The notes under the pieces are model-generated. The model did not search any database. It saw only the letters and a program-made list of their open reading frames with translations, and was not told where the DNA came from. Shown here one piece after another: positions 10,952-60,277 of a stretch of DNA of 64,000 nt; the first letter of the stretch is position 1; the number at the start of each line of letters is the position of its first letter. Position numbers and translations under genes: made by a program. The DNA is taken from assembly GCA_021683455.1 (NCBI GenBank), contig GCA_021683455.1_3051.1. One strand, 5' to 3'. The stretch comes from a phage.

Positions 10952-10981
10952 ACTATAACACAATACGAGGGACTTGTAAAC
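10952..10981 (-). promoter_or_regulatory. Early sigma70-type promoter (GTTTAC-N18-TATAGT)
   Basis: Minus-strand GTTTAC 18 nt upstream of TATAGT; same architecture recurs 12 times in the window. Confidence 0.6.
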
Positions 10982-13038
10982 TACATTTTGAACTTTTTAG
11001 ACATTCCGTTGATGTTAACCAAAGAAGCTAAGATTTGAGAAACTTCGCTTTCCTCTTCTTTTGATTCTTCTACAAGGAATTGATTAAATCTAGCCATTGG
11101 ACGAACTTCTCCGGTTTCCATCAAATGGTCACCATCATATACCGATTCCTCTAATTGTTCAGAAGGAGGAACAATCGTGCCTTCAATTAGATACTTATTA
11201 TAAGCGGTTTCTTTCATCATGTACGTACTTACTTTATTAATCTTCAGTAAAATTCCACGTGGTAGAATAACTTCAGCTTCTGATGGAAATCCTGATAAAT
11301 GACCTGGAACGATAACTTTGATTCGCTCAGCTCCTTTAATTACCATACCCACGCTAGTTTCAGCATCTTCATTAGCATATGTAGAATGACTACCCATATG
11401 CATCAAATCTTCTGCATCAACAGAACCTTCTCCTTCGCCAGAAAATACTGCGCCGGAATCATCTAGAGCCATATAGTTTTTACCATGCTCACCGAAGATA
11501 TTTGGTTTAAGCGATGTGGATACGAAGTTCTTGAAATAGAACATTTTATTTTCAATGTTATGACGCAAAGTTTTAAAGGTAACTTCTTGTCCACGGTAAA
11601 GTGTAGTTCCTGGAGGAAGAACTGAACCTTTAGCGAATGCAGAATCAAGCGTCTCAATATGTTTAATAGCTCGTTCCATATATTCTTCACGGGTAGAATC
11701 TGGTTTACCTAAAAGGAATGAGTTCATTTCAACATATGAATCTGCACAATAATCTTCAATTACATCAGATTCAGCCTGAGTTAATCCTTTTGGAGTTACT
11801 TCAGTACTTGCATATTCATATGCCTGAGCGGCAGATTCATCAATTAATTTATAAATTCCATTCATTACAAATTGAATAATAGCTGTCTTTTCATCTGGTG
11901 TAGCTTTAGAACCTTTAACTAAATCATTGATAATTTTCTTAATAACATCAAAACTATTAGAAATATTAATGTCAGCAAGATCGCTTAAAATTTTATCAGT
12001 TTTATAATCAAAGAATTCTTTATTCTTTAAATATTCTTGAGAACCTTGATATGTTATATCGCTCTGCAACTTGATAGATGGATCACGTAAACGTGCATGG
12101 GCTAATGCAATATGATTTCGGAAACTTTCTAGTTCATAATCGTTAGATTTAAAACGAGAAGCACTTCTCATACCACCGATAGCTCCTTTGCTAAAGTTTG
12201 AACCAATCTGGATAACCCCGGAGTTCATTGGTCCTTCTGCTTTATACACCGGAACTTTAGATTCAAACTCTTGATATTTCTTAGCAGCGAAGCTATCGCC
12301 TTGAAGCGAAGCATCGACAGTAGAATATTGAGCTTGTGCTGCTAATCGACGACTAATTTTAGTTTTCTGAATAACAGCTTGATCCGTACGCTTATCATTT
12401 TCTAAAGCAATAGAAGCAGCAACTGCGACAGCTTTAGGAACAGCATTACCTGTTTTAACATCTACATAAACATCACCGACCTTCGATTCAACTTTTGTGA
12501 ATAGCTCTGTTGAAATAGGAGGTACACCTGGAATGTCTTCTAAATTGGCATTTTTACGGTAAACCATAATATATGCATATTTCTTATCATAGTCCCAGAT
12601 TTCCTTTAAAAGAACATATCGACCTGCTCCTTTAGTACGTACTAAGCGGTCAGCAATAACTTGCATTTGACGAGCTGCGCCATTTGTTTTACTTTTTAGT
12701 ACGCGGAATAGGCATGCATCAATTTTATACTGTTTCATTGTTTGAAGAGCAGTATCAAAAACAGCATTAATGACGCCAATTGGATTTCCACCCAAGTTTT
12801 TAAGCTTAACTAACGATAATTTCTCGTTGACACCTATCATTACGATATGCATCATTTTGTCGCCTGGCTTAACGTTTTTATTCGTATCACCACCAGAGGT
12901 GTATGTACAAAATCTAAATCCAGGAAGCACGCTTTCTTCACCGGCTTGAATAGCAAAAATTTGAGGTATTTTATGCTTAGGATTTAAGTTAACAACCGGC
13001 GCCGAAGCGCCGTCAAATAATTCTGTAATAAGTTCCAT
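10981..13038 (-). CDS. Alt-family ADP-ribosyltransferase paralog (685 aa)
   Basis: N-terminus MELITELFD.. closely similar to neighbouring alt; C-terminal ART motifs YRGQ, FVSTSL, EAEVILPRG. Confidence 0.85.
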   Translation of the reverse strand: MELITELFDGASAPVVNLNPKHKIPQIFAIQAGEESVLPGFRFCTYTSGGDTNKNVKPGDKMMHIVMIGVNEKLSLVKLKNLGGNPIGVINAVFDTALQTMKQYKIDACLFRVLKSKTNGAARQMQVIADRLVRTKGAGRYVLLKEIWDYDKKYAYIMVYRKNANLEDIPGVPPISTELFTKVESKVGDVYVDVKTGNAVPKAVAVAASIALENDKRTDQAVIQKTKISRRLAAQAQYSTVDASLQGDSFAAKKYQEFESKVPVYKAEGPMNSGVIQIGSNFSKGAIGGMRSASRFKSNDYELESFRNHIALAHARLRDPSIKLQSDITYQGSQEYLKNKEFFDYKTDKILSDLADINISNSFDVIKKIINDLVKGSKATPDEKTAIIQFVMNGIYKLIDESAAQAYEYASTEVTPKGLTQAESDVIEDYCADSYVEMNSFLLGKPDSTREEYMERAIKHIETLDSAFAKGSVLPPGTTLYRGQEVTFKTLRHNIENKMFYFKNFVSTSLKPNIFGEHGKNYMALDDSGAVFSGEGEGSVDAEDLMHMGSHSTYANEDAETSVGMVIKGAERIKVIVPGHLSGFPSEAEVILPRGILLKINKVSTYMMKETAYNKYLIEGTIVPPSEQLEESVYDGDHLMETGEVRPMARFNQFLVEESKEEESEVSQILASLVNINGMSKKFKM

Positions 13039-13041
13039 GAT

Positions 13042-15135
13042 TTATCCTTGAACGAACTTGTAAGGCATGTTTGCAATATCTATGCAAGACGCAATAATTC
13101 CAAGAGATGATTCTACTTTTTGTTTAACATTTGATGAAACAAATGATGCAAAGTCAACTCTGTCTTCTATTTCAATATCACCTGTCATTGCAACTACTTC
13201 ACCAGTTTCCATTAGACGGTCTCCGTCATAGATTATCGATTCGGTGAGCTCTTCCGTGGTCATAACTTCAGCTTGAATGAGTTTTGTATTATTAGATGTT
13301 GTTCCGTCATTATTAGAAGCATCAGTTATTTTATTAACTTTGACCATCAATCCACGCGGTAGAATAACTTCAGCTTCTGTTGCTATTCCGAGACTTCCTG
13401 GATATACAACATTAACTTTATGAGCTCCATCAATTGCCCATCCTATTTGAACTTTAACGTATTCAGGATTTTCTTTATACGCTCTTATTTCGTTTGGATT
13501 AATAGTTATTCCTTCTTCATTTTTATCAACTGTTAATTCATTGCGAGCTTCTGGTTCTAAAAGACCAATACCAGCATGTGTGATTCCAAAACGTCCAAAA
13601 ATGATAGGAGTTAAAGAAGTAGATACAAAATTTCTGAAGTAGAACACTTTATTTTTAACTAACGCTTCATATATAGGAGCAGTCATACTTTGAGCACGAT
13701 AAACTGTAATGCCTTCTGGTATACGGTCACCATTTTCAAAAGCTGAATCTAAGTTATTTATAGCAGATTCAATTTCTTTTTCATTCATTACATCATATCG
13801 TTCTGGATTGTAACGACCTAAAAGAAGATTATTGATGTCAGTATATCCTGAACCGCAATATTCTCTAATGCCACGCTTTTGTGATGGAGTATATTTAGAA
13901 CCATCGCGTGCAATAGTAATATCAATCATTGGACCAGCACCAATTCCAGAAAAACTGTAAATCATTCGTTTGAGGAATTTAGTTTTTGCTGCGTTCCAGG
14001 AATTTTTAGTTATTTCTTCCCAGACTTCATCTGATTGTCCTTTACGATTTTTATTATGATTAGCAAGCCATTTATCTTTATAATCTTCAAAGAATTGATT
14101 TACAGCTGCTGCGTATTTCTCTAAACATTTTATTGAAGTAGTTGGTTCATTTTTAATTGCATTAAAAATTACTTCTTTAATTTTTTCTGAAACTTCACCG
14201 ACTTGACTCATTGGAAAGAATTTATAATCATAGTGAAGTTCATCTGCCGTTCCTTCAGCAATAATTTTTGCTGCCTTTGTTTTAGAAGCTAATGAATTAA
14301 TTCCAATTTTCATTTCTTCTGCTTCGGGAATTAAAGGTGCAGTAGCTGGTTTATTAAAATTGGCTGCTGTAGATTCATACTTCTGGAATAATTCACTTTC
14401 AAATCTAGAAGATTCCAATGACTGACTTTGTGCAATTGCTCTACGGGAAATTTTAACTTTAACGATTACAGCTTGGTCAGAACGTTTATCATTTTCTTGT
14501 GCAATAGATGCTGCAATTGCCTCATTTTTAGTTACTTGAGCTCCAGTATCTTTATTGATATAAACATCACCGACCTTCGATTCAACTTTAGTAAAGAGCT
14601 CTGTACTAATTTCCGGAACTCCTGGAATGTCTTCTAGTGATACATTTTTGCGATGTATAAGAATATATGCATACTTTTTATCGTAATCCCAGAGTTCCTT
14701 AAGAAGGACGTATCTGCCACCTGAACGACTACGGATAAGTCTATCAGCAATAAGTTGAATTTGTCGAGCTTGACCGGCGGTTTTAGACTTAAGAATACGA
14801 AGCATGCAGGCATCAATTTTATATTGACGCATTGTTTGCATTGCAACAGTAAAAACTGAATTGATATAATTAATCGGGCTTGGACCAAGACCTTTTAATT
14901 TAGCAATTGAACCTTTAGCAGTTAATGTAAAAGGAACAATATGCATCATTTTATCGCCCATCTTTAAATCGCGATTAGTATCACCTCCAGATGTATATGT
15001 ACATAAACGAAAGCCTGGCTGTTCAATTGCATCATCAACATGAACTGAAAAAATTTGCGGTATTTTCTTCTTTGGATTTAAGTTTGTAATCGGAAGAGTA
15101 GTATCTTCGTCAAATAATTCTGTAATAAGTTCCAT
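13042..15135 (-). CDS. alt: Alt ADP-ribosyltransferase (697 aa from second ATG)
   Basis: MELITELFDEDTTLPITNL..; ART motifs YRAQ, FVSTSL, EAEVILPRG; adjacent to ligase gene as in T4. Confidence 0.8.
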   Translation of the reverse strand: MELITELFDEDTTLPITNLNPKKKIPQIFSVHVDDAIEQPGFRLCTYTSGGDTNRDLKMGDKMMHIVPFTLTAKGSIAKLKGLGPSPINYINSVFTVAMQTMRQYKIDACMLRILKSKTAGQARQIQLIADRLIRSRSGGRYVLLKELWDYDKKYAYILIHRKNVSLEDIPGVPEISTELFTKVESKVGDVYINKDTGAQVTKNEAIAASIAQENDKRSDQAVIVKVKISRRAIAQSQSLESSRFESELFQKYESTAANFNKPATAPLIPEAEEMKIGINSLASKTKAAKIIAEGTADELHYDYKFFPMSQVGEVSEKIKEVIFNAIKNEPTTSIKCLEKYAAAVNQFFEDYKDKWLANHNKNRKGQSDEVWEEITKNSWNAAKTKFLKRMIYSFSGIGAGPMIDITIARDGSKYTPSQKRGIREYCGSGYTDINNLLLGRYNPERYDVMNEKEIESAINNLDSAFENGDRIPEGITVYRAQSMTAPIYEALVKNKVFYFRNFVSTSLTPIIFGRFGITHAGIGLLEPEARNELTVDKNEEGITINPNEIRAYKENPEYVKVQIGWAIDGAHKVNVVYPGSLGIATEAEVILPRGLMVKVNKITDASNNDGTTSNNTKLIQAEVMTTEELTESIIYDGDRLMETGEVVAMTGDIEIEDRVDFASFVSSNVKQKVESSLGIIASCIDIANMPYKFVQG

Positions 15136-15158
15136 CATATCCTCTCTAGTGTTTATTC

Positions 15159-15166
15159 TATTTATA
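15159..15166 (-). promoter_or_regulatory. Late promoter TATAAATA upstream of alt
   Basis: Minus-strand TATAAATA about 21 nt upstream of alt start, followed by SD GAGAGGA. Confidence 0.5.
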
Positions 15167-15171
15167 AAATT

Positions 15172-15189
15172 AAAGGCCCGAAGGCCTTT
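15172..15189. terminator. Terminator hairpin AAAGGCC-CGAA-GGCCTTT
   Basis: GC stem with CGAA loop flanked by A/T runs. Confidence 0.55.
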
Positions 15190-15376
15190 AATAATCTATT
15201 GGTAAGAGAGTACGATATATTTCAAACTTTGGACCTTTTTCATAAGCATCAAAAGTTTCTGTGAATTTATTATAAGCATATGCATCTATAAATTCGAGAA
15301 TGACTTGTGATACAGAAGTAGAAACATCTCCACCTTCTTTTTGAGCAATGACAATTGTTTCTAAGTAAGCTTTCAT
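15188..15376 (-). CDS. Hypothetical protein (62 aa)
   Basis: ORF with ATGA overlap to ligase stop. Confidence 0.5.
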   Translation of the reverse strand: MKAYLETIVIAQKEGGDVSTSVSQVILEFIDAYAYNKFTETFDAYEKGPKFEIYRTLLPIDY

Positions 15377-18792: not shown

Positions 18793-19130
18793 TAGAACCT
18801 CATCTGAAAACCATGTGATTTAACATTACCGCCGCCAATATCAGAAATGTTAATTTCACGCGCAATTGAAGGGTCAATGTCAATTTCACCATTAAGTTTA
18901 GCGATAGCTAAAGTATCACGCCCATTTACTGTACGGAATTCTAAAGGACAAACCACATCAACATAATTTTTAATCGATTCACTAGTAGGTTGCAAATGAG
19001 CAGGAAGGTCTTTAGGCGCCTTAGAGAAAACCACTTCACAAAAATTTTTGCGGGTGTCAAAATAAGTAGTCATAAACATAATATTTTCCTCAGTAAGGGG
19101 CTGAAGCCCCTCATTTATTTTAAATATCAA
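18792..19130 (-). CDS. Hypothetical protein (112 aa)
   Basis: Collinear ORF in 30.x block. Confidence 0.55.
   Translation of the reverse strand: MIFKINEGLQPLTEENIMFMTTYFDTRKNFCEVVFSKAPKDLPAHLQPTSESIKNYVDVVCPLEFRTVNGRDTLAIAKLNGEIDIDPSIAREINISDIGGGNVKSHGFQMRF
19097..19110. terminator. Stem-loop GGGGC-UGAA-GCCCC (inside the 3-prime end of the 19120-19485 ORF)
   Basis: 5-bp GC stem with tetraloop. Confidence 0.35.
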
Positions 19131-19485
19131 ATTCGTTAAGAACTACATCAAAGATTGCTTCAAGATGCTCAGGTTTAGCTCTATTACTCAGAATATGACG
19201 AATCCAAGTTTTAACCAGAAGCTTACGATTAACGCCATTCCAGCAAGGATGAGTCCCTAAATCACGTTGACGAAAATCATCATCTAAAGCGATTTTAAAA
19301 TTTGAACCTTCCATTGTGATTGAAACCGTGATGCCATTTTCAAATCGCATATAAACGTAGTTAGGAGTCATATACTGTTCAATTTCGCATACTGAACCAT
19401 TTTGATGTTTCCAAAGGCAAATAGTATCAATAGAACCTGCAATACCATTAGAAACATATTTACGTTCAAAGTTGATGTAGTTCAT
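19120..19485 (-). CDS. Hypothetical protein (121 aa)
   Basis: ORF downstream of early promoter 19523-19551. Confidence 0.55.
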   Translation of the reverse strand: MNYINFERKYVSNGIAGSIDTICLWKHQNGSVCEIEQYMTPNYVYMRFENGITVSITMEGSNFKIALDDDFRQRDLGTHPCWNGVNRKLLVKTWIRHILSNRAKPEHLEAIFDVVLNEFDI

Positions 19486-19522
19486 TTTTATTCTCCGAGA
19501 TGTTTAATTGCGGTACAGGTAT

Positions 19523-19551
19523 ATAATATCATATCCTGTACCAAAGTAAAC
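19523..19551 (-). promoter_or_regulatory. Early promoter (GTTTAC-N17-TATTAT)
   Basis: Same module as the other early promoters. Confidence 0.55.
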
Positions 19552-19553
19552 AA

Positions 19554-19886
19554 TTATTTTACTACTTTCCAGTACTTCATGTCAAGTTTACCAACTTTTT
19601 TCATCTTCTCAATTAAGCGTTCGGCACGTTGGCGAGCTGTAACATAATACCATTCACCTAATTCATTTTGTTCAATTTTTCCAACGATTACTGTATTCAA
19701 TTCATAAATCCAACCAGTAAAGAAATTATGAACTTGAATTGTAAAGGTGAAATCTGTTCCCATACCTTCTGTTGTTTCTACTTCAATAATATCACCTTCA
19801 ACTGCCATTAAGAACCACATAGTTTCATCATATTTACCATTGAAGCATTTAGTTTTAACTGCAGCGTTCAGATTAATCGTTTTCAT
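19554..19886 (-). CDS. Hypothetical protein (110 aa)
   Basis: Collinear ORF. Confidence 0.55.
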   Translation of the reverse strand: MKTINLNAAVKTKCFNGKYDETMWFLMAVEGDIIEVETTEGMGTDFTFTIQVHNFFTGWIYELNTVIVGKIEQNELGEWYYVTARQRAERLIEKMKKVGKLDMKYWKVVK

Positions 19887-19904
19887 TTTATTCTCCTTTG
19901 TTTG

Positions 19905-19944
19905 TGTAAGATAATACTATCACAAAGGAACCATTACTGTAAAC
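19905..19944 (-). promoter_or_regulatory. Early promoter-like element (GTTTAC .. TAGTAT)
   Basis: GTTTAC and -10-like hexamer upstream of the 19886 start; spacer slightly longer than the others. Confidence 0.4.
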
Positions 19945-19974
19945 AACTTTATGCAATCTTTGGAAAATAAAAAA

Positions 19975-19992
19975 GGACTCCCGAAGGAGTCC
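19975..19992. terminator. Terminator hairpin GGACTCC-CGAA-GGAGTCC
   Basis: 7-bp stem, CGAA loop, flanked by A-run and T-run. Confidence 0.55.
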
Positions 19993-19997
19993 TCAAC

Positions 19998-20174
19998 TTA
20001 TGCTTTCTGCTTACCAAAACGAGAAGCATCATCTCGAAGAACCGCACGTGCTCGGCGCATGATCTTCTCAACAGTTTGATTGATACGAGAGTTCGACCCA
20101 CGCTTGTAGCCAGCGCGTTTAGAATCACCAACTTTCTTTTCAACTGCTTTCTTTGCTTTAGCTTGTTTTGCCAT
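19998..20174 (-). CDS. Small basic protein (58 aa; 30.9 position)
   Basis: Track ORF extends to 20216, but the internal ATG at 20174 (MAKQAKAKK..) has an SD-like AAGAG upstream. Confidence 0.5.
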   Translation of the reverse strand: MAKQAKAKKAVEKKVGDSKRAGYKRGSNSRINQTVEKIMRRARAVLRDDASRFGKQKA

Positions 20175-20419
20175 TATAAATTCTCTTTTAAATGAAAATG
20201 CAGGACTTATTGGCATTGCCTGCGCAAGCCCTCAAGGGGAACATAGGTTTTTGGATATTTAACGACCAGGATAACCATAAACCCGTCATCATTCACATTC
20301 AAGAGGTACACCGTAAAACTGCCGGGGTCTTAAAACTATAATGATTCGCAAATCATTAATCAGACAGTTCGACGGCTCCTCGATTTTAGCTCACACTAAG
20401 GCAGTGAATCTCCAATAAA

Positions 20420-20668
20420 TTACTTCAATGTTACCACAAAGTGACGAACTGCTTTTCGTGCAGCAGAAGCCAGAGGCTTGGCATATTTAAGTTCATCTTT
20501 TTCCTGAAGCTCAGCAGCTAATGCAGTTTGAGCAGGATTCAGATGTTTGAAATAACGCAGGATTTCAAGAGCTTCGGCTTCAACATCAATAGATGCGCCA
20601 TAGTTTTCGTGACCATTATTCCATGCGTTTCGTTGCAGTTCAAGAGCGTGTTGTAATTGTTTAATCAT
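20420..20668 (-). CDS. rIII: rIII lysis-inhibition accessory protein
   Basis: 82-aa ORF MIKQLQHALELQRNAWNNGHENYG..; T4 rIII. Confidence 0.85.
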   Translation of the reverse strand: MIKQLQHALELQRNAWNNGHENYGASIDVEAEALEILRYFKHLNPAQTALAAELQEKDELKYAKPLASAARKAVRHFVVTLK

Positions 20669-22671: not shown

Positions 22672-22907
22672 AGTACGCCATACACCCTTTGTGCTTCAAC
22701 TAATCCATCAAAATCTAATTTAAGATGTGATATTTGATCGCCATCACCTGGATTCACAATTACTAATACTGAACGAGGAGTTTCGGTAATAACACGAACC
22801 GATGTTTCAGGAAATCGTTCAGAAACCTTATTTACCAATTCCTGTGCAAATAGCTTAACTTTTTCTTGGAATTCTTTAACGGTAATCGGTTTTTCACTTA
22901 ACAGCAT
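22668..22907 (-). CDS. Hypothetical protein (79 aa)
   Basis: Collinear ORF downstream of early promoter. Confidence 0.55.
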   Translation of the reverse strand: MLLSEKPITVKEFQEKVKLFAQELVNKVSERFPETSVRVITETPRSVLVIVNPGDGDQISHLKLDFDGLVEAQRVYGVL

Positions 22908-22936
22908 TTTGTTTTCCTCATTTGTTTGGTAGAGCT

Positions 22937-22966
22937 ATAATATCACAACTCTACCGTAAAGTAAAC
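22937..22966 (-). promoter_or_regulatory. Early promoter (GTTTAC-N18-TATTAT)
   Basis: Same module; SD GAGGAA and ATG follow. Confidence 0.6.
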
Positions 22967-22968
22967 TA

Positions 22969-23250
22969 TTAAATTGCTTTGAATTCTGCTGTCTGCGATT
23001 CAAAACGAATATCGCCTTTGATGACTAGCTCAGCATCAAGACCGAATACAACAATGATATGTGCAGAACCTGGATACAACGTGATGGCAATAGAATCCAC
23101 CTGGTCTGGAAGCAAAGTGTTCAATACATGAGTCACTTGAGCATGGATTCGAAGCTCGGCTGCGTTATCAAGCTTTTCAAACATATTATTAGCGATAATT
23201 TGACTAAACACTACTTCTACGATTTTAGAATAAGTCGGAAACATATTCAC
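22969..23250 (-). CDS. Hypothetical protein (93 aa)
   Basis: Collinear ORF. Confidence 0.55.
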   Translation of the reverse strand: MNMFPTYSKIVEVVFSQIIANNMFEKLDNAAELRIHAQVTHVLNTLLPDQVDSIAITLYPGSAHIIVVFGLDAELVIKGDIRFESQTAEFKAI

Positions 23251-23439
23251 CTCACATAATTTTCTTCAAGCCAATTAATAACATCCAACGCATTATCAAA
23301 AGTTGAACCATCTACTATGTCTTCTGTTTCATAATCAAGAATATCTATGTCTACTCTTCCATCAACAATAGGCCATAAACAAAATAGATATTTCTTTTCT
23401 TTTTCAATTTTATCACAAAGTTGATAAATCTTTTCTATG

Positions 23440-23447
<8 letters not shown>
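23247..23447 (-). CDS. Hypothetical protein (66 aa)
   Basis: Collinear ORF. Confidence 0.5.
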
Positions 23448-24841
<1,394 letters not shown>

Positions 24842-26209: not shown

Positions 26210-26240
26210 CATAAAGTCCTCATGTTATGTCAGTAAGACT

Positions 26241-26270
26241 ACTATAACACAACATGAGGGACTTGTAAAC
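26241..26270 (-). promoter_or_regulatory. Early promoter (GTTTAC-N18-TATAGT) upstream of alc
   Basis: About 50 bp near-identical to the element at 10925-10981. Confidence 0.6.
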
Positions 26271-26273
26271 AGC

Positions 26274-27889
<1,616 letters not shown>

Positions 27890-29071: not shown

Positions 29072-29122
29072 AAATTTTCCACTTAGTTAATAGATAGTGA
29101 CTCGTCCATGAGTCAAATTATA

Positions 29123-32778: not shown

Positions 32779-32823
32779 TTAGTACCTTATATAAATTATA
32801 ATACATTTTATGAAGCTAAATAA

Positions 32824-33171
32824 TCAATACGGTTTAGCAACAAATTTTCTCTCAATTTCAGGCGTGAAATATAATTCTTTACCACGTTTGGAAAAGCGAC
32901 CAATAATATGATAATTATTCTCATCAAACGTAATATTACCAATATCCATAGCTTTCAACCAAATATCGATATTTCTATCTAGCTTTATGTCAAAATTCCA
33001 ATACGGAGAACTATTACCGAAAATACTGCAAGCGGATTCAGTGAAACAACTGCTATAAATCTTGTCTTTAGGAACTACCAATTGATAGACGCCTTTAATA
33101 AACTGAGGACCCTGCCACTTTGGTTGTTTCTCATCTTTTTCTAATAGAATAGGGTAATAATTAAAATTCAT
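32824..33171 (-). CDS. Hypothetical protein (115 aa) between td and frd
   Basis: ORF filling the frd-td junction; no recognisable motif. Confidence 0.55.
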   Translation of the reverse strand: MNFNYYPILLEKDEKQPKWQGPQFIKGVYQLVVPKDKIYSSCFTESACSIFGNSSPYWNFDIKLDRNIDIWLKAMDIGNITFDENNYHIIGRFSKRGKELYFTPEIERKFVAKPY

Positions 33172-33190
33172 ATTTCCGCCACACGTTATT

Positions 33191-34013
<823 letters not shown>

Positions 34014-34029
<16 letters not shown>

Positions 34030-34373: not shown

Positions 34374-34383
34374 AATATTTTCC

Positions 34384-34626
34384 TCAGACAGACTTTTTCA
34401 CAATTTTCCAATCAGCTTTAAACTGATCAACGTCAGAATGGTAAATCCAGAATCCTGCGCTTTCTCCGTCTTCATAAAGAGGACATCCATCGCATTCATC
34501 TTCCCATCCCATATCACGTAAAAGATGTTCAGCTTTTTCAATGAGTTCAGAATCTTTACCGATGATATTAAAATACCATTTACCTCTAACTTCTGAATCT
34601 TTAATGCTCTGGCGTTGTAATCTCAT
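34384..34626 (-). CDS. Hypothetical protein (80 aa)
   Basis: ORF downstream of early promoter 34655-34684 with SD GAGGAG. Confidence 0.55.
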   Translation of the reverse strand: MRLQRQSIKDSEVRGKWYFNIIGKDSELIEKAEHLLRDMGWEDECDGCPLYEDGESAGFWIYHSDVDQFKADWKIVKKSV

Positions 34627-34654
34627 TTTATTCTCCTCAGTAGTTGATAGGGTA

Positions 34655-34684
34655 ATAGTATCACACTACTACCCTGTTGTAAAC
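34655..34684 (-). promoter_or_regulatory. Early promoter (GTTTAC-N18-TACTAT)
   Basis: Same module including conserved leader TATCAACTACTGAGGAG. Confidence 0.6.
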
Positions 34685-34686
34685 AA

Positions 34687-34989
34687 TTATTTTTGAATTT
34701 TATCGAGCCACTTACCAAGCTTAATCATTTCTTTAGTAGCCTTTTCCATACTTCTGAACTTAACCAATAGAGGATAGGTATCGACACCCATAACTAAATT
34801 GGTTGCAAGACTGTGTTCACCCACAAGCCATAACGAATACGTTTGAATATCGAGCCCGTAATTTCTGTCTTTATGGACCCGTACACCCATCACTTCAAAT
34901 TTCTCACTAGCTTTTTCTACCGCATCCAGGAAATCATCTTTAGTCATATTAGGCCTTGAAAGTTTTTCGCAAAAGTTCAATGATTTCAT
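34687..34989 (-). CDS. Hypothetical protein (100 aa)
   Basis: Collinear ORF. Confidence 0.55.
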   Translation of the reverse strand: MKSLNFCEKLSRPNMTKDDFLDAVEKASEKFEVMGVRVHKDRNYGLDIQTYSLWLVGEHSLATNLVMGVDTYPLLVKFRSMEKATKEMIKLGKWLDKIQK

Positions 34990-35379: not shown

Positions 35380-35610
35380 TTATTGTTCAATCAGTCCCAT
35401 GTAAAATTCTGCGTCTTCAGAATCCATGCCATCACAATATTCATTAGCCATAAAGCGGGTAAGGTCTTCAAGAGGACCTTCAATGACAATAGAAAAATTG
35501 CAATAATTGGGATCATCATGAATACTTGTGATACTAAGTTCAGGATAACGATTACGAATAATCTCTTCAATATATTCAAAATCAACGATGTCAATATCAA
35601 CTTTAGCCAT
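35380..35610 (-). CDS. Hypothetical acidic protein (76 aa)
   Basis: Track ORF to 35736 reads through promoter and terminator; internal ATG at 35610 (MAKVDIDIV..) has SD AAGAGGAA. Confidence 0.55.
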
Positions 35611-35653
35611 ATTATTTTCCTCTTTAATCATCAGCAGTATTGCCGATAGTTGT

Positions 35654-35683
35654 ATAGTACCATAAAGCCTTATGTTTGTAAAC
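35654..35683 (-). promoter_or_regulatory. Early promoter (GTTTAC-N18-TACTAT)
   Basis: Near-identical to 52348-52377, including an upstream A/T-rich tract. Confidence 0.6.
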
Positions 35684-35715
35684 CGTTTTGTGAAAAAAAT
35701 TTTGAAATAAAAAAA

Positions 35716-35734
35716 GGGGACCTCTAGGGTCCCC
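35716..35734. terminator. Terminator hairpin GGGGACC-UCUA-GGGTCCCC downstream of gene 32
   Basis: 7/8-bp GC stem flanked by A-run and T-run. Confidence 0.6.
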
Positions 35735-35756
35735 AATTAATTAGTAATATAATCTA

Positions 35757-36730: not shown

Positions 36731-36748
36731 AGTGAGATAATTATAATC

Positions 36749-36756: not shown

Positions 36757-36764
36757 ATAAGCAA

Positions 36765-38008: not shown

Positions 38009-38926
38009 TCAAAATTCATTAATGCTATTAGTTAATTTAGAAAGACCCGCTTTTACAAAATATGAATAAATTTTGCCACGCGGTGGTAATTTATATGAAT
38101 TATAGTAATTCACAATGTTTGAAGCAATATTATCAGGAATATAATCAAAATCAATTAGAACTAAATTTTCTTTATAACGATTATATTCAGATTCTGTGAG
38201 AAGCACCTTAGCTTGCTCACGGTCATTAGCAATAGCTTCAACGATTGAAGTTTTCATTGAAGGGGTTCGTTCACCTTCAACTTTGGTAAACCAAAAGTCA
38301 GATCGTACTTTAACTGAAGCAACGTTATCCTTTTTGTCGCCCTTAAGGATTTTAGTCATACAGTCAATTTCAGCAGAACCGCTTTTAATTTTAACCCATT
38401 TCTTGTGCATCGGTGACCATTGCTTAACATTTGGGTATTTGTGAAGTTGAGTAAAGTCACCATCCGATGAAATGATTAAAATCTTGTGTCCTTCTAAAGA
38501 GAACTTTTTAACAAGAACAGCAATGTGGTCATCTGCTTCATACTTATCGATATCCATAACAATGTATGGCATATAAGCTTTCAATTCATCTATAACTTTG
38601 TGGCTGGATTCAAAATAACCTTCCCAGTCCCAAGTCGATTCTTCTCGTGCTTTTCCACGGTTTTTCTTATAATAATAAGCGAAATCACGACGCCAGTATC
38701 CAGATTTCGCGTTATCAATACACAGTACAATTTTAGTGTATCCAAGAGTTTTTGCTTTTTTGACATTAAACTTAATTGAGTTCAATATCAAATGACGAAC
38801 CATTGATAAATTAATTTTTTCTTTATCTGGGAAGTTTACTAAAGCAGTTGAAAGCGCAATTTGACTAAAGTCAATAAAGCAAATTCCTTCTTTGTAATCT
38901 TCATCCAGCATCATTTCTAAATCCAT
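38009..38926 (-). CDS. rnh: RNase H (5-prime to 3-prime exonuclease / flap endonuclease)
   Basis: MDLEMMLDEDYKEGICFIDFSQIAL.. from ATG 38926 gives 305 aa as in T4 RNase H. Confidence 0.9.
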   Translation of the reverse strand: MDLEMMLDEDYKEGICFIDFSQIALSTALVNFPDKEKINLSMVRHLILNSIKFNVKKAKTLGYTKIVLCIDNAKSGYWRRDFAYYYKKNRGKAREESTWDWEGYFESSHKVIDELKAYMPYIVMDIDKYEADDHIAVLVKKFSLEGHKILIISSDGDFTQLHKYPNVKQWSPMHKKWVKIKSGSAEIDCMTKILKGDKKDNVASVKVRSDFWFTKVEGERTPSMKTSIVEAIANDREQAKVLLTESEYNRYKENLVLIDFDYIPDNIASNIVNYYNSYKLPPRGKIYSYFVKAGLSKLTNSINEF

Positions 38927-38955
38927 ATGAACCTCGTTCAATTAGTGAGATTTCT

Positions 38956-38985
38956 ATTATATACCATCCAAATCTTAAAGTAAAC
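38956..38985 (-). promoter_or_regulatory. Early promoter (GTTTAC-N18-TATAAT) for rnh
   Basis: Same 30-nt architecture, in the rnh-34 intergenic region. Confidence 0.5.
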
Positions 38986-38988
38986 AAG

Positions 38989-38996
38989 TATAAATA
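38989..38996 (+). promoter_or_regulatory. Late promoter TATAAATA for gene 34
   Basis: Exact TATAAATA 35 nt upstream of gp34 ATG, SD GGAG. Confidence 0.6.
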
Positions 38997-39030
38997 CTTA
39001 TTATTGAAAACACAATAGGAGCCCGGGAGA

Positions 39031-49578: not shown

Positions 49579-49851
49579 TTATTTGTTTGTATACATTTCT
49601 AAATATCTATATACACCCTCAAAACCCTCGTTGAATTCGTCGATGAGGGTTTTCTTATCTTCTTGAGTTAATTCAGAAACAATTTTACGGAATGAATTCT
49701 GATTTAATTTTCTACCTTCGTGTGTTACTCCAATCTCATTCAGAAATGCAATAAAATTAGCACGATTCTCAACAATATCTTCTCTGGAAAATTTAATCAA
49801 AATAGACGCAACAGTAATAATTTCACGAACTGTATCAATATTTTTATTCAT
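49579..49851 (-). CDS. asiA: Anti-sigma70 factor AsiA
   Basis: 90-aa ORF MNKNIDTVREIITVASILIKFSREDIVENRANFIAF..; T4 AsiA. Confidence 0.9.
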   Translation of the reverse strand: MNKNIDTVREIITVASILIKFSREDIVENRANFIAFLNEIGVTHEGRKLNQNSFRKIVSELTQEDKKTLIDEFNEGFEGVYRYLEMYTNK

Positions 49852-49863
49852 TAACTATACCAC

Positions 49864-50016
49864 TCAATTAGTTGACTTTATTATAATATCATCAGACGCT
49901 TGATTTGTAAACTGGTCTGTGTTATTTTCTTCAAAAATTTTTTCTACGAATTCCTTGAACGACTCACGTTCCTGAGCTACATTGTGCTCGATTACCTTTT
50001 CAAGATTATGACTCAT
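49864..50016 (-). CDS. Possible small acidic protein (50 aa) between arn and asiA
   Basis: Hand-translated MSHNLEKVIEHNVAQERESFKEF..; ATGA overlap with arn stop; early promoter embedded at its 3-prime end. Confidence 0.4.
   Translation of the reverse strand: MSHNLEKVIEHNVAQERESFKEFVEKIFEENNTDQFTNQASDDIIIKSTN
49883..49912 (-). promoter_or_regulatory. Early promoter (GTTTAC-N18-TATTAT) for asiA
   Basis: Same 30-nt architecture as the other early promoters. Confidence 0.55.
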
Positions 50017-51670: not shown

Positions 51671-52306
51671 TCACAGTTCAGATGCTACAGTGATTACAGC
51701 TTCAATGTTTTCTGCTGAGCGTTTAATGTCAAGATACACATTACCGTTTTTAGCGATTTTACAAGACATTCCGATATCAGTAAATTTCTGAATATGATGT
51801 TCCATCATTTTGTATCCAAAAATTCGCATATTTCCATTATTGTTAATTTCAAAATTGCGAATTCCGTGAGTGCGTTTTTCTAAAATAGCAAGATAGTTAC
51901 TACGATAAGTTTCAACTTTTTTAAGAACAAATCCATTTTCATCTAAAAGTTTTAACATAAAGTCTTTATCTTCTTCCATATCAGAAGTAATCTCGCGAGC
52001 TTTACGAGTTGCTCGTTTTTTCAGCAGTTCCGGAGCATTTTCCTGTGCGTATAAAGTTGCTGCATTTGAAATAATATCCTGAGCTTCACCAGTAATGATT
52101 AATCCATCACCAGATTTCTCCACCAGGCCTTTTTTAATCAATACCCCAATATTACTATTAACTACTGCATTACCTAAATCTGGATGCACCTCACGAACTT
52201 CTGCAGCTGTAATGAAATCTTTCTTAGCAATAGTAATTAAAATCGCAGCAGTTTTTTCATTCAGAACATCGTTAGAAGCTTTGATGATGTAAGTTACTTT
52301 AGACAT
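51671..52306 (-). CDS. motA: MotA middle-transcription activator
   Basis: 211-aa ORF MSKVTYIIKASNDVLNEKTAAILITIAKKDF..; T4 MotA. Confidence 0.9.
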   Translation of the reverse strand: MSKVTYIIKASNDVLNEKTAAILITIAKKDFITAAEVREVHPDLGNAVVNSNIGVLIKKGLVEKSGDGLIITGEAQDIISNAATLYAQENAPELLKKRATRKAREITSDMEEDKDFMLKLLDENGFVLKKVETYRSNYLAILEKRTHGIRNFEINNNGNMRIFGYKMMEHHIQKFTDIGMSCKIAKNGNVYLDIKRSAENIEAVITVASEL

Positions 52307-52347
52307 TTTCTAATCTCCGTAATTCTGTATCAGTAGTTGATAGTTGT

Positions 52348-52377
52348 ATAGTACCACAGTATGCTTTGGTTGTAAAC
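52348..52377 (-). promoter_or_regulatory. Early promoter (GTTTAC-N18-TACTAT) for motA
   Basis: Same module with upstream A/T tract. Confidence 0.6.
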
Positions 52378-52408
52378 CGTTTTGTGAAAAAAATTTTGAA
52401 ATAAAAAA

Positions 52409-52428
52409 GGGAGAGCCGAGGCTCTCCC
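52409..52428. terminator. Terminator hairpin GGGAGAGCC-GAG-GCUCUCCC
   Basis: 8/9-bp stem flanked by A-run and T-run, directly upstream of the motA early promoter. Confidence 0.6.
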
Positions 52429-52433
52429 TAAAA

Positions 52434-55135: not shown

Positions 55136-55354
55136 TCATTTTACACCATTCCAAATTGTTTCAACCACGGATTTTAAACCATTTTGATGAATATCCATTC
55201 CGACAACTGCCATCAAATAGATTCCAACTACAACTGAACCTAAGGCAAAAATCAGCATGAAAATGAATAAAGCCGGAAAAATATTATCGAAAAACCATTC
55301 AATAAATGTAAAAGCACTGCGTTTACGCTTCATATTTTCCTCACATAAATCCAA
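55136..55354 (-). CDS. Hypothetical membrane protein (72 aa)
   Basis: Hydrophobic segment IFPALFIFMLIFALGSVVVGIYLMAVVG. Confidence 0.5.
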   Translation of the reverse strand: MDLCEENMKRKRSAFTFIEWFFDNIFPALFIFMLIFALGSVVVGIYLMAVVGMDIHQNGLKSVVETIWNGVK

Positions 55355-55454
55355 AGTAAACGTTTAATACATCAATCATTAAAACGATTGGGAATATACT
55401 CAAAACTATTAGTATTATAACTACATTCCATATAGCTTTAATAATCTTTTTCAT
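55341..55454 (-). CDS. Small membrane peptide (37 aa)
   Basis: Internal ATG MKKIIKAIWNVVIILIVLSIFPIVLM.. after SD GGAGGAA; track N-terminal extension reads through the promoter. Confidence 0.45.
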   Translation of the reverse strand: MKKIIKAIWNVVIILIVLSIFPIVLMIDVLNVYFGFM

Positions 55455-55482
55455 TTTCTGTTCCTCCGTAGTTGATAGGGTA

Positions 55483-55512
55483 ATAGTACCACGGAAGAAC
55501 AGTCTTGTAAAC
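55483..55512 (-). promoter_or_regulatory. Early promoter (GTTTAC-N18-TACTAT)
   Basis: Same module plus conserved leader CCTATCAACTACGGAGGAA. Confidence 0.6.
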
Positions 55513-55697
55513 AACTTTTTTAAAAATATTCGTAATAAATGTGAATACCAACTACTACCGCTGAAACCTGTGCAACCCACCACGCACAAGCAATAAGTGC
55601 AGAATTCAAAATTTTCATAATAACCTCATCACAAAAGTAAATGTTAAACAAATTACTGGAATACTAATTAACCAAACAAAACACCACCATAATGAAC

Positions 55698-55961
55698 TCA
55701 TAGTTCAATCTCAGCAATTTTCATTTCATTACTATTAATAGCCGCTTTAAGACTATCTGAAAGAATTACATTCCAGTGGTCATTCATATGACCATTAACT
55801 AAGCGTGTAATTTCTTCGGGAGTTGAAAAATAAGGCGTATCAGACTCCCAATGCGATAATCCTAAGCGAGTATAAATCATACCTTCATCATCGCTAGAAT
55901 ATTCAACTGACACAAACTCATCAGTTATTTTATGTTTAGCGTAATGAAATTTAAATTTCAT
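55698..55961 (-). CDS. Hypothetical protein (87 aa)
   Basis: Internal ATG at 55961 (MKFKFHYAKHK..) after SD GGAGGAG; track extension rejected. Confidence 0.5.
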   Translation of the reverse strand: MKFKFHYAKHKITDEFVSVEYSSDDEGMIYTRLGLSHWESDTPYFSTPEEITRLVNGHMNDHWNVILSDSLKAAINSNEMKIAEIEL

Positions 55962-55989
55962 TTTCCGCTCCTCCGTAGTTGATAGTTGT

Positions 55990-56019
55990 ATAGTACCACG
56001 GTCCTTGTGGTATGTAAAC
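55990..56019 (-). promoter_or_regulatory. Early promoter (GTTTAC-N18-TACTAT)
   Basis: Same module. Confidence 0.6.
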
Positions 56020-56035
56020 CGTTTTGTGAAAATTT

Positions 56036-56593
56036 TTAAATGGAAAGATACCATCCGTTGTAGTTGCTTTTTCTTACAACCTTACGAAGGTCTTCTCTGT
56101 CACCGATGAACTTCGGAGTGTACTGGATGACACCTGGATGAATTTCTTTAGTGTTGAATATAATTATACAGTCAGCGACTTGATGATTTAGAATGGGCCC
56201 TAGATTTATTCCAGAACCATATGGATACTCTCCGCTGCATCCCGTTGTTACCGAAATCCAACGCGAGTCAGTTTGATGTGTTTTGACTTCTACACGAAGC
56301 CCGCAATATTTTGGATGCGCTAAAACATCCCATGCATACGTGTACGGATCATCGACATTTTCTTGGCCTTTATTGACATATCCGCTTAGCCAATCTGCCA
56401 CAAAAAACTCTGCGTACACCGCGATACGGCATCTTTCGATAACTTCTGCTTTATCCTGGTTCGGGTTTTGTTTTAAAGAGTATCTTGCTGTATCAGCAAT
56501 TTTGACCTTCATTTCACTAGTCAAGTCACTGTTCGATAGGGTAAATGTCGGAATCTGAAATAGTCTCTGCAAACCCGGATTTGTTTTCTGCAT
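56036..56593 (-). CDS. denB: Endonuclease IV (cytosine-DNA specific)
   Basis: 185-aa ORF; T4 DenB length and position between ndd block and rIIB. Confidence 0.8.
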   Translation of the reverse strand: MQKTNPGLQRLFQIPTFTLSNSDLTSEMKVKIADTARYSLKQNPNQDKAEVIERCRIAVYAEFFVADWLSGYVNKGQENVDDPYTYAWDVLAHPKYCGLRVEVKTHQTDSRWISVTTGCSGEYPYGSGINLGPILNHQVADCIIIFNTKEIHPGVIQYTPKFIGDREDLRKVVRKSNYNGWYLSI

Positions 56594-56639
56594 TTAAACT
56601 TTCCTTTATGTCGGAATCATAATTTCTCTTAAAACAAAA

Positions 56640-56651
56640 GGGCCGAAGCCC
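56640..56651. terminator. Stem-loop GGGC-CGAA-GCCC
   Basis: GC stem with tetraloop flanked by A-run and T-run. Confidence 0.45.
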
Positions 56652-56657
56652 CTTATT

Positions 56658-56852
56658 TTATTTGAATTGTGCAATTCTTTTCTCTAGACATTCAGCATAA
56701 GATTTCATTGAGATGAACTGTGAAAGTAGAAGTTCTTGCTCAACTGCACTAACCGTTAGAAACTTTGCGCTTTCTAAAAATTTGCTCAGTGCATTAATTT
56801 TGAGCATTAATTGATCGTATTCTTCTTTTACTCGTGCTTGATAACCTAACAT
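56658..56852 (-). CDS. Hypothetical protein (64 aa; denB.1 position)
   Basis: Collinear ORF flanked by hairpins. Confidence 0.5.
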   Translation of the reverse strand: MLGYQARVKEEYDQLMLKINALSKFLESAKFLTVSAVEQELLLSQFISMKSYAECLEKRIAQFK

Positions 56853-56867
56853 AATTTTCCTTAGTTA

Positions 56868-56881
56868 AGGGCCGAAGCCCT
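56868..56881. terminator. Stem-loop AGGGC-CGAA-GCCCU downstream of rIIB
   Basis: GC stem with tetraloop followed by T-run. Confidence 0.5.
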
Positions 56882-57819
56882 TATTTAAATTGTTCAGTAA
56901 CGTCTTCAACTACTTCGTATTGACAGGTACGCATTTTAGCGTCGTTGTAATCAATCGGAATTGATACTACATCGCGAGGATGAACTTTAACTTTTACAAC
57001 TCGGCTGGTTGAACCACCGAAGTGACGAATATAAGATTTAGAACACACATGCAGACCACGAGAACAAGTTTGTGTATCATCGTCATTCACGCGAGTACGC
57101 GGCATTTTAACTACTTTACCCGGACTGTTATCAAAGGTATTTGAGTGACAGTCAAAGTAATTGCTGCGAACTACTTTCCAAGCATAGAAGTAACCATCTT
57201 CTGTAATTTCAATATCGTTTGCTACCAAGAAATCAAAAAGTCGAGATACCGCTTTCTGGCTTGGGTTTTCCAGCAGATTTTCCAAGAACGGAAAATAAAA
57301 TTCAAAGTTTTCGCCTTTTTCCATCGAATCAAGAATACGATCAACCAAACCAGACCGCAATTCAATATTTTGATAGAATAAGCTTCCACCTTCAATTCGA
57401 ACATCGCCGGAAATATATTTTTCAACAGCGCGACGAACATTAATTTTTTGTGCAGCTTCTTCCAACTTATCCGCTACAAGCAGATTAAGAATTTCCTGGA
57501 AGTTTGAATGAGTATTAGGAGTTGCGTTATAAGTTACACCGTCAACAGTAATTGAAATGAATTTTTTAGATGCATTCCAAATAATGTCAGATTTAGCAAC
57601 TGGAGCAATAACTACATCACTATTAACTTTAACTGTAATATCACCGCTAATAGTAACTTTAGAGCGTTCAGCTTCTTCAGCATTTTTCAAAACACGACGG
57701 ATTGTATCAACCGATACACCTTGCCAATCAGCCAATTCCTGTTGGGTGTAATTACCGCTTGAATACAGTTTAACAATTTCAGCTTGTTCGTTTTTGGTCA
57801 GGCATTTAATATTGTACAT
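56881..57819 (-). CDS. rIIB: rIIB protein
   Basis: 312-aa ORF; T4 rIIB length and position. Confidence 0.9.
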   Translation of the reverse strand: MYNIKCLTKNEQAEIVKLYSSGNYTQQELADWQGVSVDTIRRVLKNAEEAERSKVTISGDITVKVNSDVVIAPVAKSDIIWNASKKFISITVDGVTYNATPNTHSNFQEILNLLVADKLEEAAQKINVRRAVEKYISGDVRIEGGSLFYQNIELRSGLVDRILDSMEKGENFEFYFPFLENLLENPSQKAVSRLFDFLVANDIEITEDGYFYAWKVVRSNYFDCHSNTFDNSPGKVVKMPRTRVNDDDTQTCSRGLHVCSKSYIRHFGGSTSRVVKVKVHPRDVVSIPIDYNDAKMRTCQYEVVEDVTEQFK

Positions 57820-60008: not shown

Positions 60009-60018
60009 AATTTCCTCA

Positions 60019-60222
60019 TTAATTCATATTACGCTTAATAACTTCAGCAACTTCTAGTAGTTCATCTTTAGTTGCAGTGTCGGATTGAATTTTATCTCTA
60101 ATATCTTTAAAGCGGTTTTTAAATTCTTCGGCTTCTCCCATATCGAAAAAGCGTTGAATGATTCTATATTCTCGATGAACTGCTTTATCAAAAAGTTCTA
60201 AATTTACTCTATATGATTTCAT
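60019..60222 (-). CDS. rIIA.1: rIIA.1 small protein
   Basis: 67-aa ORF immediately upstream of rIIA. Confidence 0.7.
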
Positions 60223-60247
60223 TTCAATATCCTCATTTGCCCAATTA

Positions 60248-60277
60248 ATTATACCACATCCTTGTGGTAAAGTAAAC
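60248..60277 (-). promoter_or_regulatory. Early promoter (GTTTAC-N18-TATAAT) for rIIA.1-rIIA
   Basis: Same architecture with consensus -10. Confidence 0.6.

Follow-up and report, generated by a model that had tools for sequence, protein, structure and literature searches.

Early promoter cassettes of the T4 type, many with a stem across the −10 box, in the early-gene region of a Tequatrovirus

Introduction

The early promoters of phage T4 were reportedly described by Liebig and Rueger in 1989 and tabulated by Miller et al. in 2003. Their consensus has GTTTAC at −36 to −31, an A-rich stretch at −40 to −44, and GT-rich sequence before −12 (Nolan 2006, PMC1524935), and they have been termed the "UP/−35/TGn/−10" class (Hinton 2010, PMC2988021). 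A composite unit, the promoter-early-stem-loop (PeSL), runs from a stop codon through an AT-rich region, the −35 and −10 boxes, a stem-loop overlapping the promoter, and a Shine–Dalgarno (SD) sequence to an ATG (Arbiol 2010, PMC2839356). PeSLs are concentrated in hyperplastic regions, and it was proposed that their stems attenuate upstream transcription and that the units mediate shuffling of open reading frames (ORFs) and formation of mini-circles (PMC2839356). The T4/PST consensus is TTTACW-N17-TAYWAT, with the ndd.4/.5 exchange as an example (Comeau 2014, PMC4122927). At T4 e, soc, 49, and I-TevI, SD-sequestering hairpins contain an internal late promoter (Uzan and Miller 2010, PMC3014915). 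Here, we analyze a family of 14 promoter-plus-leader units, which we call cassettes, on the minus strand of a 64,000-nt stretch of phage DNA (the window; NCBI GenBank assembly GCA_021683455.1, contig GCA_021683455.1_3051.1).

The cassettes are, with high probability, early promoter cassettes of the T4 type: host σ70-dependent promoters with an SD leader, most of them with a stem and some of them serving as recombination junctions. Such elements are already known as T4 early promoters, also described as PeSLs, and the window copies belong to the described PeSL class because they have both the published anatomy and the T4/PST consensus. Their discovery value is small: these are textbook promoters, and the cassette organization and proposed shuffling role were published in 2010 and 2014. 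For annotation, 14 early transcription units receive assignable start points that can be compared with T4 gene by gene. A modest refinement is the widespread stem spanning the −10 box, which covaries, lacks a U-tract, and often hides the SD, and which offers an alternative to the "terminator" reading of PeSLs.

A promoter family on the minus strand

The pattern GTTTAC-N17-19-TANNNT matches the window at 14 places, of which 13 are on the minus strand, against an expectation of 2.6 ± 1.6; none of 100 shuffles reached 14. Among the 13 exact copies, the spacer is 18 nt in 11, 17 nt in one (19523-19551), and 19 nt in one (19914-19944), and TG is present at −15/−14 in 12. A 14th, degenerate copy with an ATATAC −35 box lies at the window end (Table 1); it also has the TG (TGg) and carries the leader ATCAACTAC. 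We name the exact copies by their outer −35 coordinate (10981, 19551, and so on) and the 14th copy 63979. The 25 nt upstream of the −35 box (the UP region) are 77% A+T compared with 64% for the window as a whole (in this tabulation, the row for the 14th copy, whose UP region is cut by the window end, is off by 3 nt). A two-block log-odds position weight matrix scored the 13 sites at 28-58 bits and the next-best position on either strand at 12 bits, with no site found on the plus strand; the matrix having been trained on the same 13 sites, only the size of this gap is informative. A relaxed consensus (one mismatch in −35, two in −10) returned mostly noise on both strands. A generic σ70 scan (TTGACA/TATAAT) was not enriched over shuffles (70 vs. 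76, 77 vs. 67, and 52 vs. 60), and still it recovered all 13 copies, as TTTAC[AT]-17-TAnnnT. What distinguishes the cassette copies is the T4-specific extended consensus.

In an unbiased repeat search, the cassette sites were the top dispersed repeat families (D1, D2, D4, D8, D9, and D18), with 60-94% identity between copies. Spans 10928-10981 and 26217-26270 are 94% identical over 54 nt, spacer and leader included, and the match between copies 35683 and 52377 (86% over 76 nt) extends back toward the terminator. The copies fall into sub-families: {10981, 26270}, {35683, 52377, 56019, 63979}, and {34684, 55512}. Five copies (34640, 52333, 55468, 55975, and 63938) have the exact leader TATCAACTAC, three (34684, 55512, and 56019) have the longer form TATCAACTAC(G/T)GAGGA, and the leader ATCAACTAC(TGATAC) is common to five.

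A preliminary description of this DNA had proposed a family of near-identical early promoters with a fixed 18-nt spacer and a leader shared by many copies, and had suggested the weight matrix as a check. The family is real, and 12 of the 13 starts listed there are exact; at the remaining one, given as 19905, a site exists, but its true position is 19914-19944. The spacer is fixed apart from the two exceptions above. Near-identity holds within sub-families only, including the pair of about 50 bp that had been quoted (10981 and 26270), and the leader is shared by fewer copies than supposed. The assignment to early promoters and the resemblance to PeSLs were apt.

The window is 95-97% identical to Tequatrovirus genomes such as ECP52, RB68, and RB51 and, by this similarity, is the early-gene region of a Tequatrovirus (RB51/RB68/T4-like). 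Comparison with T4 places early and middle genes on the minus strand (alt, 30, 30.x, rIII, 31, cd, pseT, alc, rnlA, nrdB, nrdA, td, frd, 32, 59, 33, and rnh, followed by asiA, arn, motA, 52, ndd, denB, rIIB, rIIA, and 39) and late genes on the plus strand (baseplate genes and 34-38/t). All copies are intergenic, and each starts at the upstream stop codon or no more than a few bases from it. The G of the −35 box overlaps the stop of alt (10981) and of gp39 (60277); the asiA copy alone is placed in the final codons of a genuine upstream ORF, the 3′ end of asiA.1, as in T4. Downstream of each −10 box, a 25- to 43-nt leader with an SD precedes the ATG of an early gene on the same strand: alt.-3, 30.7, 30.8, cd.2, alc, frd.1-like, frd.3-like, rnh, asiA, motA, ndd.4-like, an 87-aa ORF, rIIA.1, and an 89-aa ORF.

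T4 has a matching copy for all 14 cassettes, in the same order, and the genes named for T4 counterparts include alt.-3, 30.7, 30.8, cd.2, alc, the frd region, rnh, asiA, motA, ndd.4, ndd.6, and rIIA.1; this matching rests on sequence similarity and conserved order, and at the two frd-region copies T4 and the window have different downstream ORFs. The T4 GenBank record AF158101 names "early promoter Pe133295 between cd.2 and cd.3," whose counterpart is cassette 4. In the T4 cd.2 copy, the −10 box ends at 133302, and 133295 is the seventh base downstream, the expected +1. Apart from this note, AF158101 has no promoter features, and the old T4 record X03007 has only "potential" promoters upstream of pseT, unrelated to the cassettes. 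The window copies share with the T4 early promoters GTTTAC at −36 to −31, the 17- to 19-nt spacing, the GT-rich/TGn element, TAnnnT, the A-rich UP region, the strand, and the downstream genes, including those of Pe133295, motA, and asiA. There is no substantive difference; other small ORFs stand behind some copies in the window (the 87-aa ORF at 55961 and two alt paralogues). This correspondence with T4 predicts that the cassettes would be active as promoters in this phage. Across 55 related loci from the motA and cd regions, promoters of this type number 191 on the gene strand and 10 on the opposite one. Canonical intrinsic terminators stand directly upstream of only three copies (Table 1). 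By our count, eight of the leaders have GGAG within the SD. This motif is the target of the T4 RegB nuclease on early mRNAs (PMC3014915), and the GGAG-bearing leaders may likewise be RegB targets.

Table 1. Cassettes, upstream terminators, and indel or replacement boundaries that fall inside cassettes
Feature	Position	Strand	Elements or location	Start codon (gene)	T4 copy or remark
Cassette 1	10918..11006	(−)	UP region; −35 GTTTAC 10976-10981; TGt; −10 TATAGT 10952-10957; 31-nt leader	ATG 10920 (alt.-3-like, 96 aa)	123093
Cassette 2	19483..19576	(−)	−35 19546-19551; spacer 17; −10 TATTAT 19523-19528; 37-nt leader with GGAG	ATG 19485 (30.7)	129918
Cassette 3	19884..19994	(−)	−35 19939-19944; spacer 19; −10 TAGTAT 19914-19919	ATG 19886 (30.8)	130310
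Intrinsic terminator upstream of cassette 3	19973-19994	(−)	UUCG loop and T-run		
Cassette 4	22905..22991	(−)	−35 22961-22966; −10 TATTAT 22937-22942	ATG 22907 (cd.2)	133331
Cassette 5	26210..26295	(−)	−35 26265-26270; −10 TATAGT 26241-26246	ATG 26212 (alc)	136336
Cassette 6	34624..34709	(−)	−35 34679-34684; −10 TACTAT 34655-34660; leader TACCCTATCAACTACTGAGGAG	ATG 34626 (frd.1-like, 80 aa)	146143
Cassette 7	35608..35734	(−)	−35 35678-35683; −10 TACTAT 35654-35659; 43-nt leader	ATG 35610 (frd.3-like)	146875
Terminator upstream of cassette 7	35716-35734	(−)			
Cassette 8	38924..39010	(−)	−35 38980-38985; −10 TATAAT 38956-38961, without TG	ATG 38926 (rnh)	150763
Cassette 9	49849..49937	(−)	−35 49907-49912; −10 TATTAT 49883-49888	ATG 49851 (asiA)	161211
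Cassette 10	52304..52429	(−)	−35 52372-52377; −10 TACTAT 52348-52353; leader ACAACTATCAACTACTGATACAG...	ATG 52306 (motA)	163673
Terminator upstream of cassette 10	52408-52429	(−)			
Cassette 11	55452..55537	(−)	−35 55507-55512; −10 TACTAT 55483-55488	ATG 55454 (ndd.4-like)	166807
Cassette 12	55959..56044	(−)	−35 56014-56019; −10 TACTAT 55990-55995; leader ...TATCAACTACGGAGGAG	ATG 55961 (87-aa ORF, not in T4)	167086
Cassette 13	60220..60302	(−)	−35 60272-60277; −10 TATAAT 60248-60253	ATG 60222 (rIIA.1)	2458
Cassette 14	63907..64000	(−)	−35 ATATAC 63977-63982; TGg; −10 TACTAT 63953-63958	ATG 63909 (89-aa ORF)	6630
Boundary	11000		Cassette 1, UP region		Edge of alt duplication
Boundary	19891		Cassette 3, SD-ATG spacer		
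Boundary	22903-22911		Cassette 4, leader and ATG		Extra ORF of ~170 aa after the cd.2 leader in relatives L017-L020
Boundary	34640		Cassette 6, inside TATCAACTAC		Homology with T4, L059, and L061 breaks
Boundary	35703		Cassette 7, UP region		
Boundary	52334-52410		Cassette 10		
Boundary	55972		Cassette 12, directly after ATCAACTAC		T4 167086 diverges there

A stem-loop spanning the −10 box

Each unit was folded as RNA from the −35 box to the ATG and compared with dinucleotide shuffles. A significant stem is present in 9-10 of the 14 window copies (z −1.9 to −5.6), and it is always built alike, with a 5′ arm in the promoter spacer, a loop holding the −10 box and the start site, and a 3′ arm in the leader. 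Four copies (10981, 26270, 19944, and 55512) have their SD covered by this 3′ arm. In cassette 1, the spacer CCTCGTATTGTGTTAT pairs with the leader ATAACATGAGG; in cassette 3, the spacer TTCCTTTGT pairs with the SD ACAAAGGAG; the cassette 5 stem reaches dG −24.8 (z −5.5); and in cassette 11, the spacer CTGTTCTTCCGTGGT pairs with ACTACGGAGGAACAG (z −5.6, dG −22.7). The stem closes immediately around the −10 box in another four (19551, 22966, 34684, and 63979), as with GGTACAGGATAT / ATACCTGTACC in cassette 2, which leaves the −10 box in the loop (z −4.6), with GGTAGAGTT / AGCTCTACC in cassette 4 (z −5.4), and in cassette 14, where the spacer ATCAGTAGTTGAT is a perfect inverted repeat of the leader ATCAACTACTGAT (z −5.2). 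Copies 60277, 56019, and 35683 have a small stem within the spacer (CCACA/TGTGG in cassette 13), and the stem of cassette 12 ends just short of the SD.

The same structure recurs beyond the window. From IMG/VR, we collected 135 related loci surrounding motA, cd, and gene 32 and used the first 55 (motA and cd) for the census and fold statistics. The 142 distinct units found there, from diverse T4-like phages, had a mean z of −2.56, with 44% below −3, compared with a mean of −0.56 and 8% below −3 for 200 control gene starts without such a promoter (Mann–Whitney p about 3e-15, a value that is indicative only because related copies among the 142 units are not independent). About 70% of the units have their 5′ arm in the spacer. 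The 3′-arm pairing profile has two peaks, one just after the −10 box and one ~22-29 nt after its start, at the placed SD position; the SD is paired in 43-49% of the units. The 73 strong stems all lack a following U-tract (5 or more U in 8 nt). Of the spacers, 29% contain an anti-SD tetramer, compared with 8.9 ± 2.4% in shuffles. In 53 of 78 strong units, the fold of the sense strand is more stable than that of the antisense strand (mean −1.9 kcal/mol, p about 1e-4), an asymmetry that favors a role at the RNA level over a DNA cruciform.

Covariation was seen in the cd.2 series drawn from different phages, where GGTAGAGTT/AGCTCTACC changes in compensatory fashion to GGTAGGACT/AGTCCTACC or GGTGGAGTT/AACTCTACC. 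In this alignment, 82% of cells are paired compared with 26-47% when the partner is slid, and both partners change in three of the nine pairs. An unrelated stem, CCGGAAGT/ACTTCCGG, takes the same place in one phage, and three relatives have an alternative stem within the spacer instead.

The start of T4 Pe133295 lies within the 3′ arm. Because the start site falls in the loop or the 3′ arm, the stem can form only on read-through RNA and not on RNA made from the cassette's own promoter. The missing U-tracts, enriched anti-SD motifs, and strand asymmetry suggest that the role of the PeSL stem may be, at least partly, to mask translation on read-through RNA and not to terminate transcription. The T4 e, soc, 49, and I-TevI hairpins are alike in that the 5′ arm lies upstream of the start of the embedded promoter, so that read-through RNA hides the SD and the promoter's own RNA does not; pairing of the SD with a segment upstream of the embedded start is clear in the four SD-covering window copies. 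The two systems differ in the embedded promoter, which is late (TATAAATA) or middle in the T4 examples and delays translation, whereas the cassette promoters are early and of σ70 type. By analogy, an early embedded promoter would be predicted to confine translation to the immediate-early transcript. With the published PeSLs, the cassettes share the composite layout, the position among small nonessential early ORFs, and some indel junctions, including the ndd region. The T4/PST stems are described as lying just upstream of the promoter, whereas the window stems mainly span the −10 box, as in RB49/phi1, and stems of the window type have no U-tract and cover the SD in about 45% of units, which suggests masking instead of or besides termination.

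A separate small structure may form on the promoter's own RNA. In the sub-family with the leader ACAACTATC..., a 5′ hairpin can arise from the initial ~20 transcribed bases, with examples TATCA-ACTAC-TGATA and, with a different stem sequence, ATCGGCA-ATAC-TGCTGAT (52333-52347, 35620-35650, and 63925-63947); this may be a stabilizing stem-loop.

Possible recombination at the cassettes

The window was compared by blastn with T4 and four close IMG/VR genomes. Of 28 distinct indel or replacement boundaries, 7 fall inside cassettes (Table 1), which against a per-base null gives p about 1e-5. The clearest case is motA, where relatives L005 and L006 have an extra ORF of ~83 aa between two cassettes with a common leader, CTATCAAATAAATGAACTGAAAC; in L004, an extra ORF is also inserted, and the first cassette copy is degraded. 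At the ndd copy, T4 has an alternative leader, TGATACGGA...GGAGAATAAAATG, known from other cassettes, and lacks the 87-aa ORF. The cassettes lie among the small ORFs 30.x, cd.x, frd.x, arn/ndd, and rIIA.1, and the neighboring pairs 56019/55512 and 19944/19551, at distances of 507 and 393 nt, respectively, are candidates for mini-circles. Further differences between the genomes are introns and homing-endonuclease insertions (the nrdB intron, mobE, the td intron/I-TevI, segG, and gene 60/mobA) and tail-fiber mosaics. In relative L021, a deletion boundary at 19109 lies inside a C(UUCG)G-type hairpin of a second repeat family.

Mechanism and alternative explanations

In the mechanism that we propose, each cassette consists of an A/T-rich UP element, a GTTTAC −35 box, an extended −10 (TGn), a TAnnnT −10 box, and a short leader with an SD and the start codon of an early gene. 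After injection, unmodified E. coli RNA polymerase would fire leftward from the minus-strand cassettes and thereby give each small early gene block its own strong start. In most copies, an inverted repeat with one arm in the promoter spacer and the other in the transcribed leader would form a stem only on RNA reading through from an upstream promoter, where it most likely insulates the downstream gene, by masking the SD in about half of the cases and otherwise by attenuating or structuring the junction. Since the copies have 12-75 nt in common and short homologies suffice for recombination in T4, they would sometimes be junctions for the insertion, deletion, and swapping of gene cassettes. It is also possible, though we advance it only tentatively, that the spacer of many T4-type early promoters is an anti-SD element that silences the downstream gene on read-through (delayed-early/middle) transcripts, the gene being translated only from its own immediate-early transcript. 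If true, T4-like phages would generally have a translational insulator and timer embedded in such promoters, which would extend the e, soc, 49, and I-TevI logic to the early class and reinterpret the PeSL "terminator" stem. We found no statement of a promoter within an SD-sequestering hairpin for early promoters.

Several results weigh against parts of this account, in addition to the relatedness of the folded units. Folding gave no significant stem for 38985 (cassette 8, z +0.85), 49912 (cassette 9), and 52377, and the stems of 56019 and 60277 are weak (z −0.3 and −0.5); the stem is therefore not obligatory. Masking of the SD applies to only about 45% of units and so cannot be its sole function. 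As for recombination, 21 boundaries lie off the cassettes (e.g., 23288-23604, 24539-24835, 32781-33186, 33773-34380, and 62425-62802), many ORF indels are bounded by no cassette on either side, and in T4 recombination can take place at microhomologies of 2-10 bp (PMC9391042). Against a gene-junction null, in which an estimated ~15% of junctions bear a cassette, 7 of 28 is not significant (p 0.09-0.2), and we dropped the claim of significant breakpoint enrichment, a point on which the present sample, with its weak excess, differs from the published PeSLs. The preliminary description's view of the cassettes as plausible sites of recombination and shuffling is thus only partly borne out, by individual junctions inside cassettes in relatives and not by an excess over other gene junctions: a recombination role is plausible, with good individual examples and no demonstrated preference in the sample.

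That same null result, together with the 60-70% identity of most pairs outside the functional boxes and their differing spacers, would fit promoters that arose independently and look alike only through the constraints of RNA polymerase, with neither duplicated or mobile cassettes nor a recombination role. Such convergence is conceivable but rather unlikely: the sub-family pairs 10981/26270 and 35683/52377 share long sequence without known polymerase contact, ATCAACTAC(TGATAC) recurs in five leaders, T4 and the window have swapped leaders at the ndd copy, and the inserted motA ORF carries its own cassette with the same leader. Still less can be said for reading the repeats as coding sequence or as MotA-dependent middle promoters, which is hardly credible. 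A few mechanically called ORFs overlap copies (35380-35736, 55341-55589, and 49864-50016), but these are TTG-start artifacts or only the last codons of the upstream gene; coding sequence, which the preliminary description had named as a refutation, was rejected from the sequence itself, as the copies lie between genes or extend only into the final codons or stop of asiA.1, gp39, and alt, and each is followed by an SD and an ATG opening a gene that matches the T4 gene at that position. A middle promoter was rejected as well, since no copy has TGCTT near −30, where the MotA box (a/t)(a/t)(a/t)TGCTTtA is centered, and all have the GTTTAC-type −35 instead.

For the stem, an alternative to a translational mask is a terminator or attenuator of upstream transcription, as the PeSL papers propose. 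One RB49 PeSL stem cut lacZ expression as strongly as rrnB T1 (PMC2839356), and the stems stand at gene ends, where termination makes sense; the reported reduction could, however, come from an effect on translation or RNA stability. Intrinsic termination by the −10-spanning stems was rejected on their lack of U-tracts: a GC-rich stem with a U-tract is found only in the separate canonical hairpins further upstream of three window copies. The enriched anti-SD motifs and the second 3′-arm peak at the placed SD likewise leave termination a doubtful, if possible, explanation. More improbable is that the inverted repeats act on DNA, as a cruciform or single-stranded hairpin signaling recombination or replication. 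Arbiol et al. speculate on a DNA-binding recombination factor at the stem (PMC2839356), and the deletion boundary at 19109 does lie in a hairpin, albeit of a different type. The sense–antisense asymmetry and the G-U pairs tolerated across phages are expected for RNA and not for a cruciform, which argues against a DNA signal, and breakpoints lie mostly in leaders and UP regions, not at stem bases.

Other features of the window

Compared with T4, the window lacks the nrdB intron/I-TevIII, mobE/nrdB.1, the td intron/I-TevI, segG, and the gene 60/mobA insertion; the T4-only insertions would map to 28395, 29071-29127, 32229, 36728-36764, and 60612-60677. Because the gene 60/mobA insertion is missing, gp39 is a single 606-aa ORF (60277-62097). 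Small window ORFs that are not in T4 lie at 24539-24841 (100 aa), 32824-33171 (115 aa), 33772-34373 (85 and 119 aa), 55698-55961 (87 aa), and 62430-62810 (126 aa); most of the T4-absent small ORFs are inserted exactly at gene boundaries, without a cassette at either end. Two full-length alt-like ADP-ribosyltransferase genes stand in tandem at 10981-13038 and 13042-15138 (685 and 698 aa), and the repeats D3, D7, and D14 in this pair are spaced 2094-2097 nt apart. T4, by comparison, has a single alt gene together with the alt.-1 and alt.-2 remnants.

Between rIII and 30.9, a noncoding segment of ~200 nt (20217-20425) is conserved in 677 phage records, mostly of Tequatrovirus. The ~340 nt from 20166 to 20504 are 97% identical to a segment within the tRNA gene cluster of the Justusliebigvirus Escherichia phage AV123, with partial matches in other genera, and several Tequatroviruses lose the alignment at 20292-20320. 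An Rfam search of the window, this segment included, gave no match, and its RNA fold is unexceptional (z −1.27). The segment may be a horizontally exchanged noncoding module.

The second dispersed intergenic repeat family lies at 15164-15192, 19096-19120, 56629-56662, 56867-56891, and 62139-62172. On the minus strand, its members are GC-rich hairpins with a UUCG loop (e.g., AAGGGGC-UUCG-GCCCTT), often flanked by a T-run on one side or on both. In appearance they are like the C(UUCG)G hairpins that Tuerk reportedly described in 1988 in T4 intercistronic regions.

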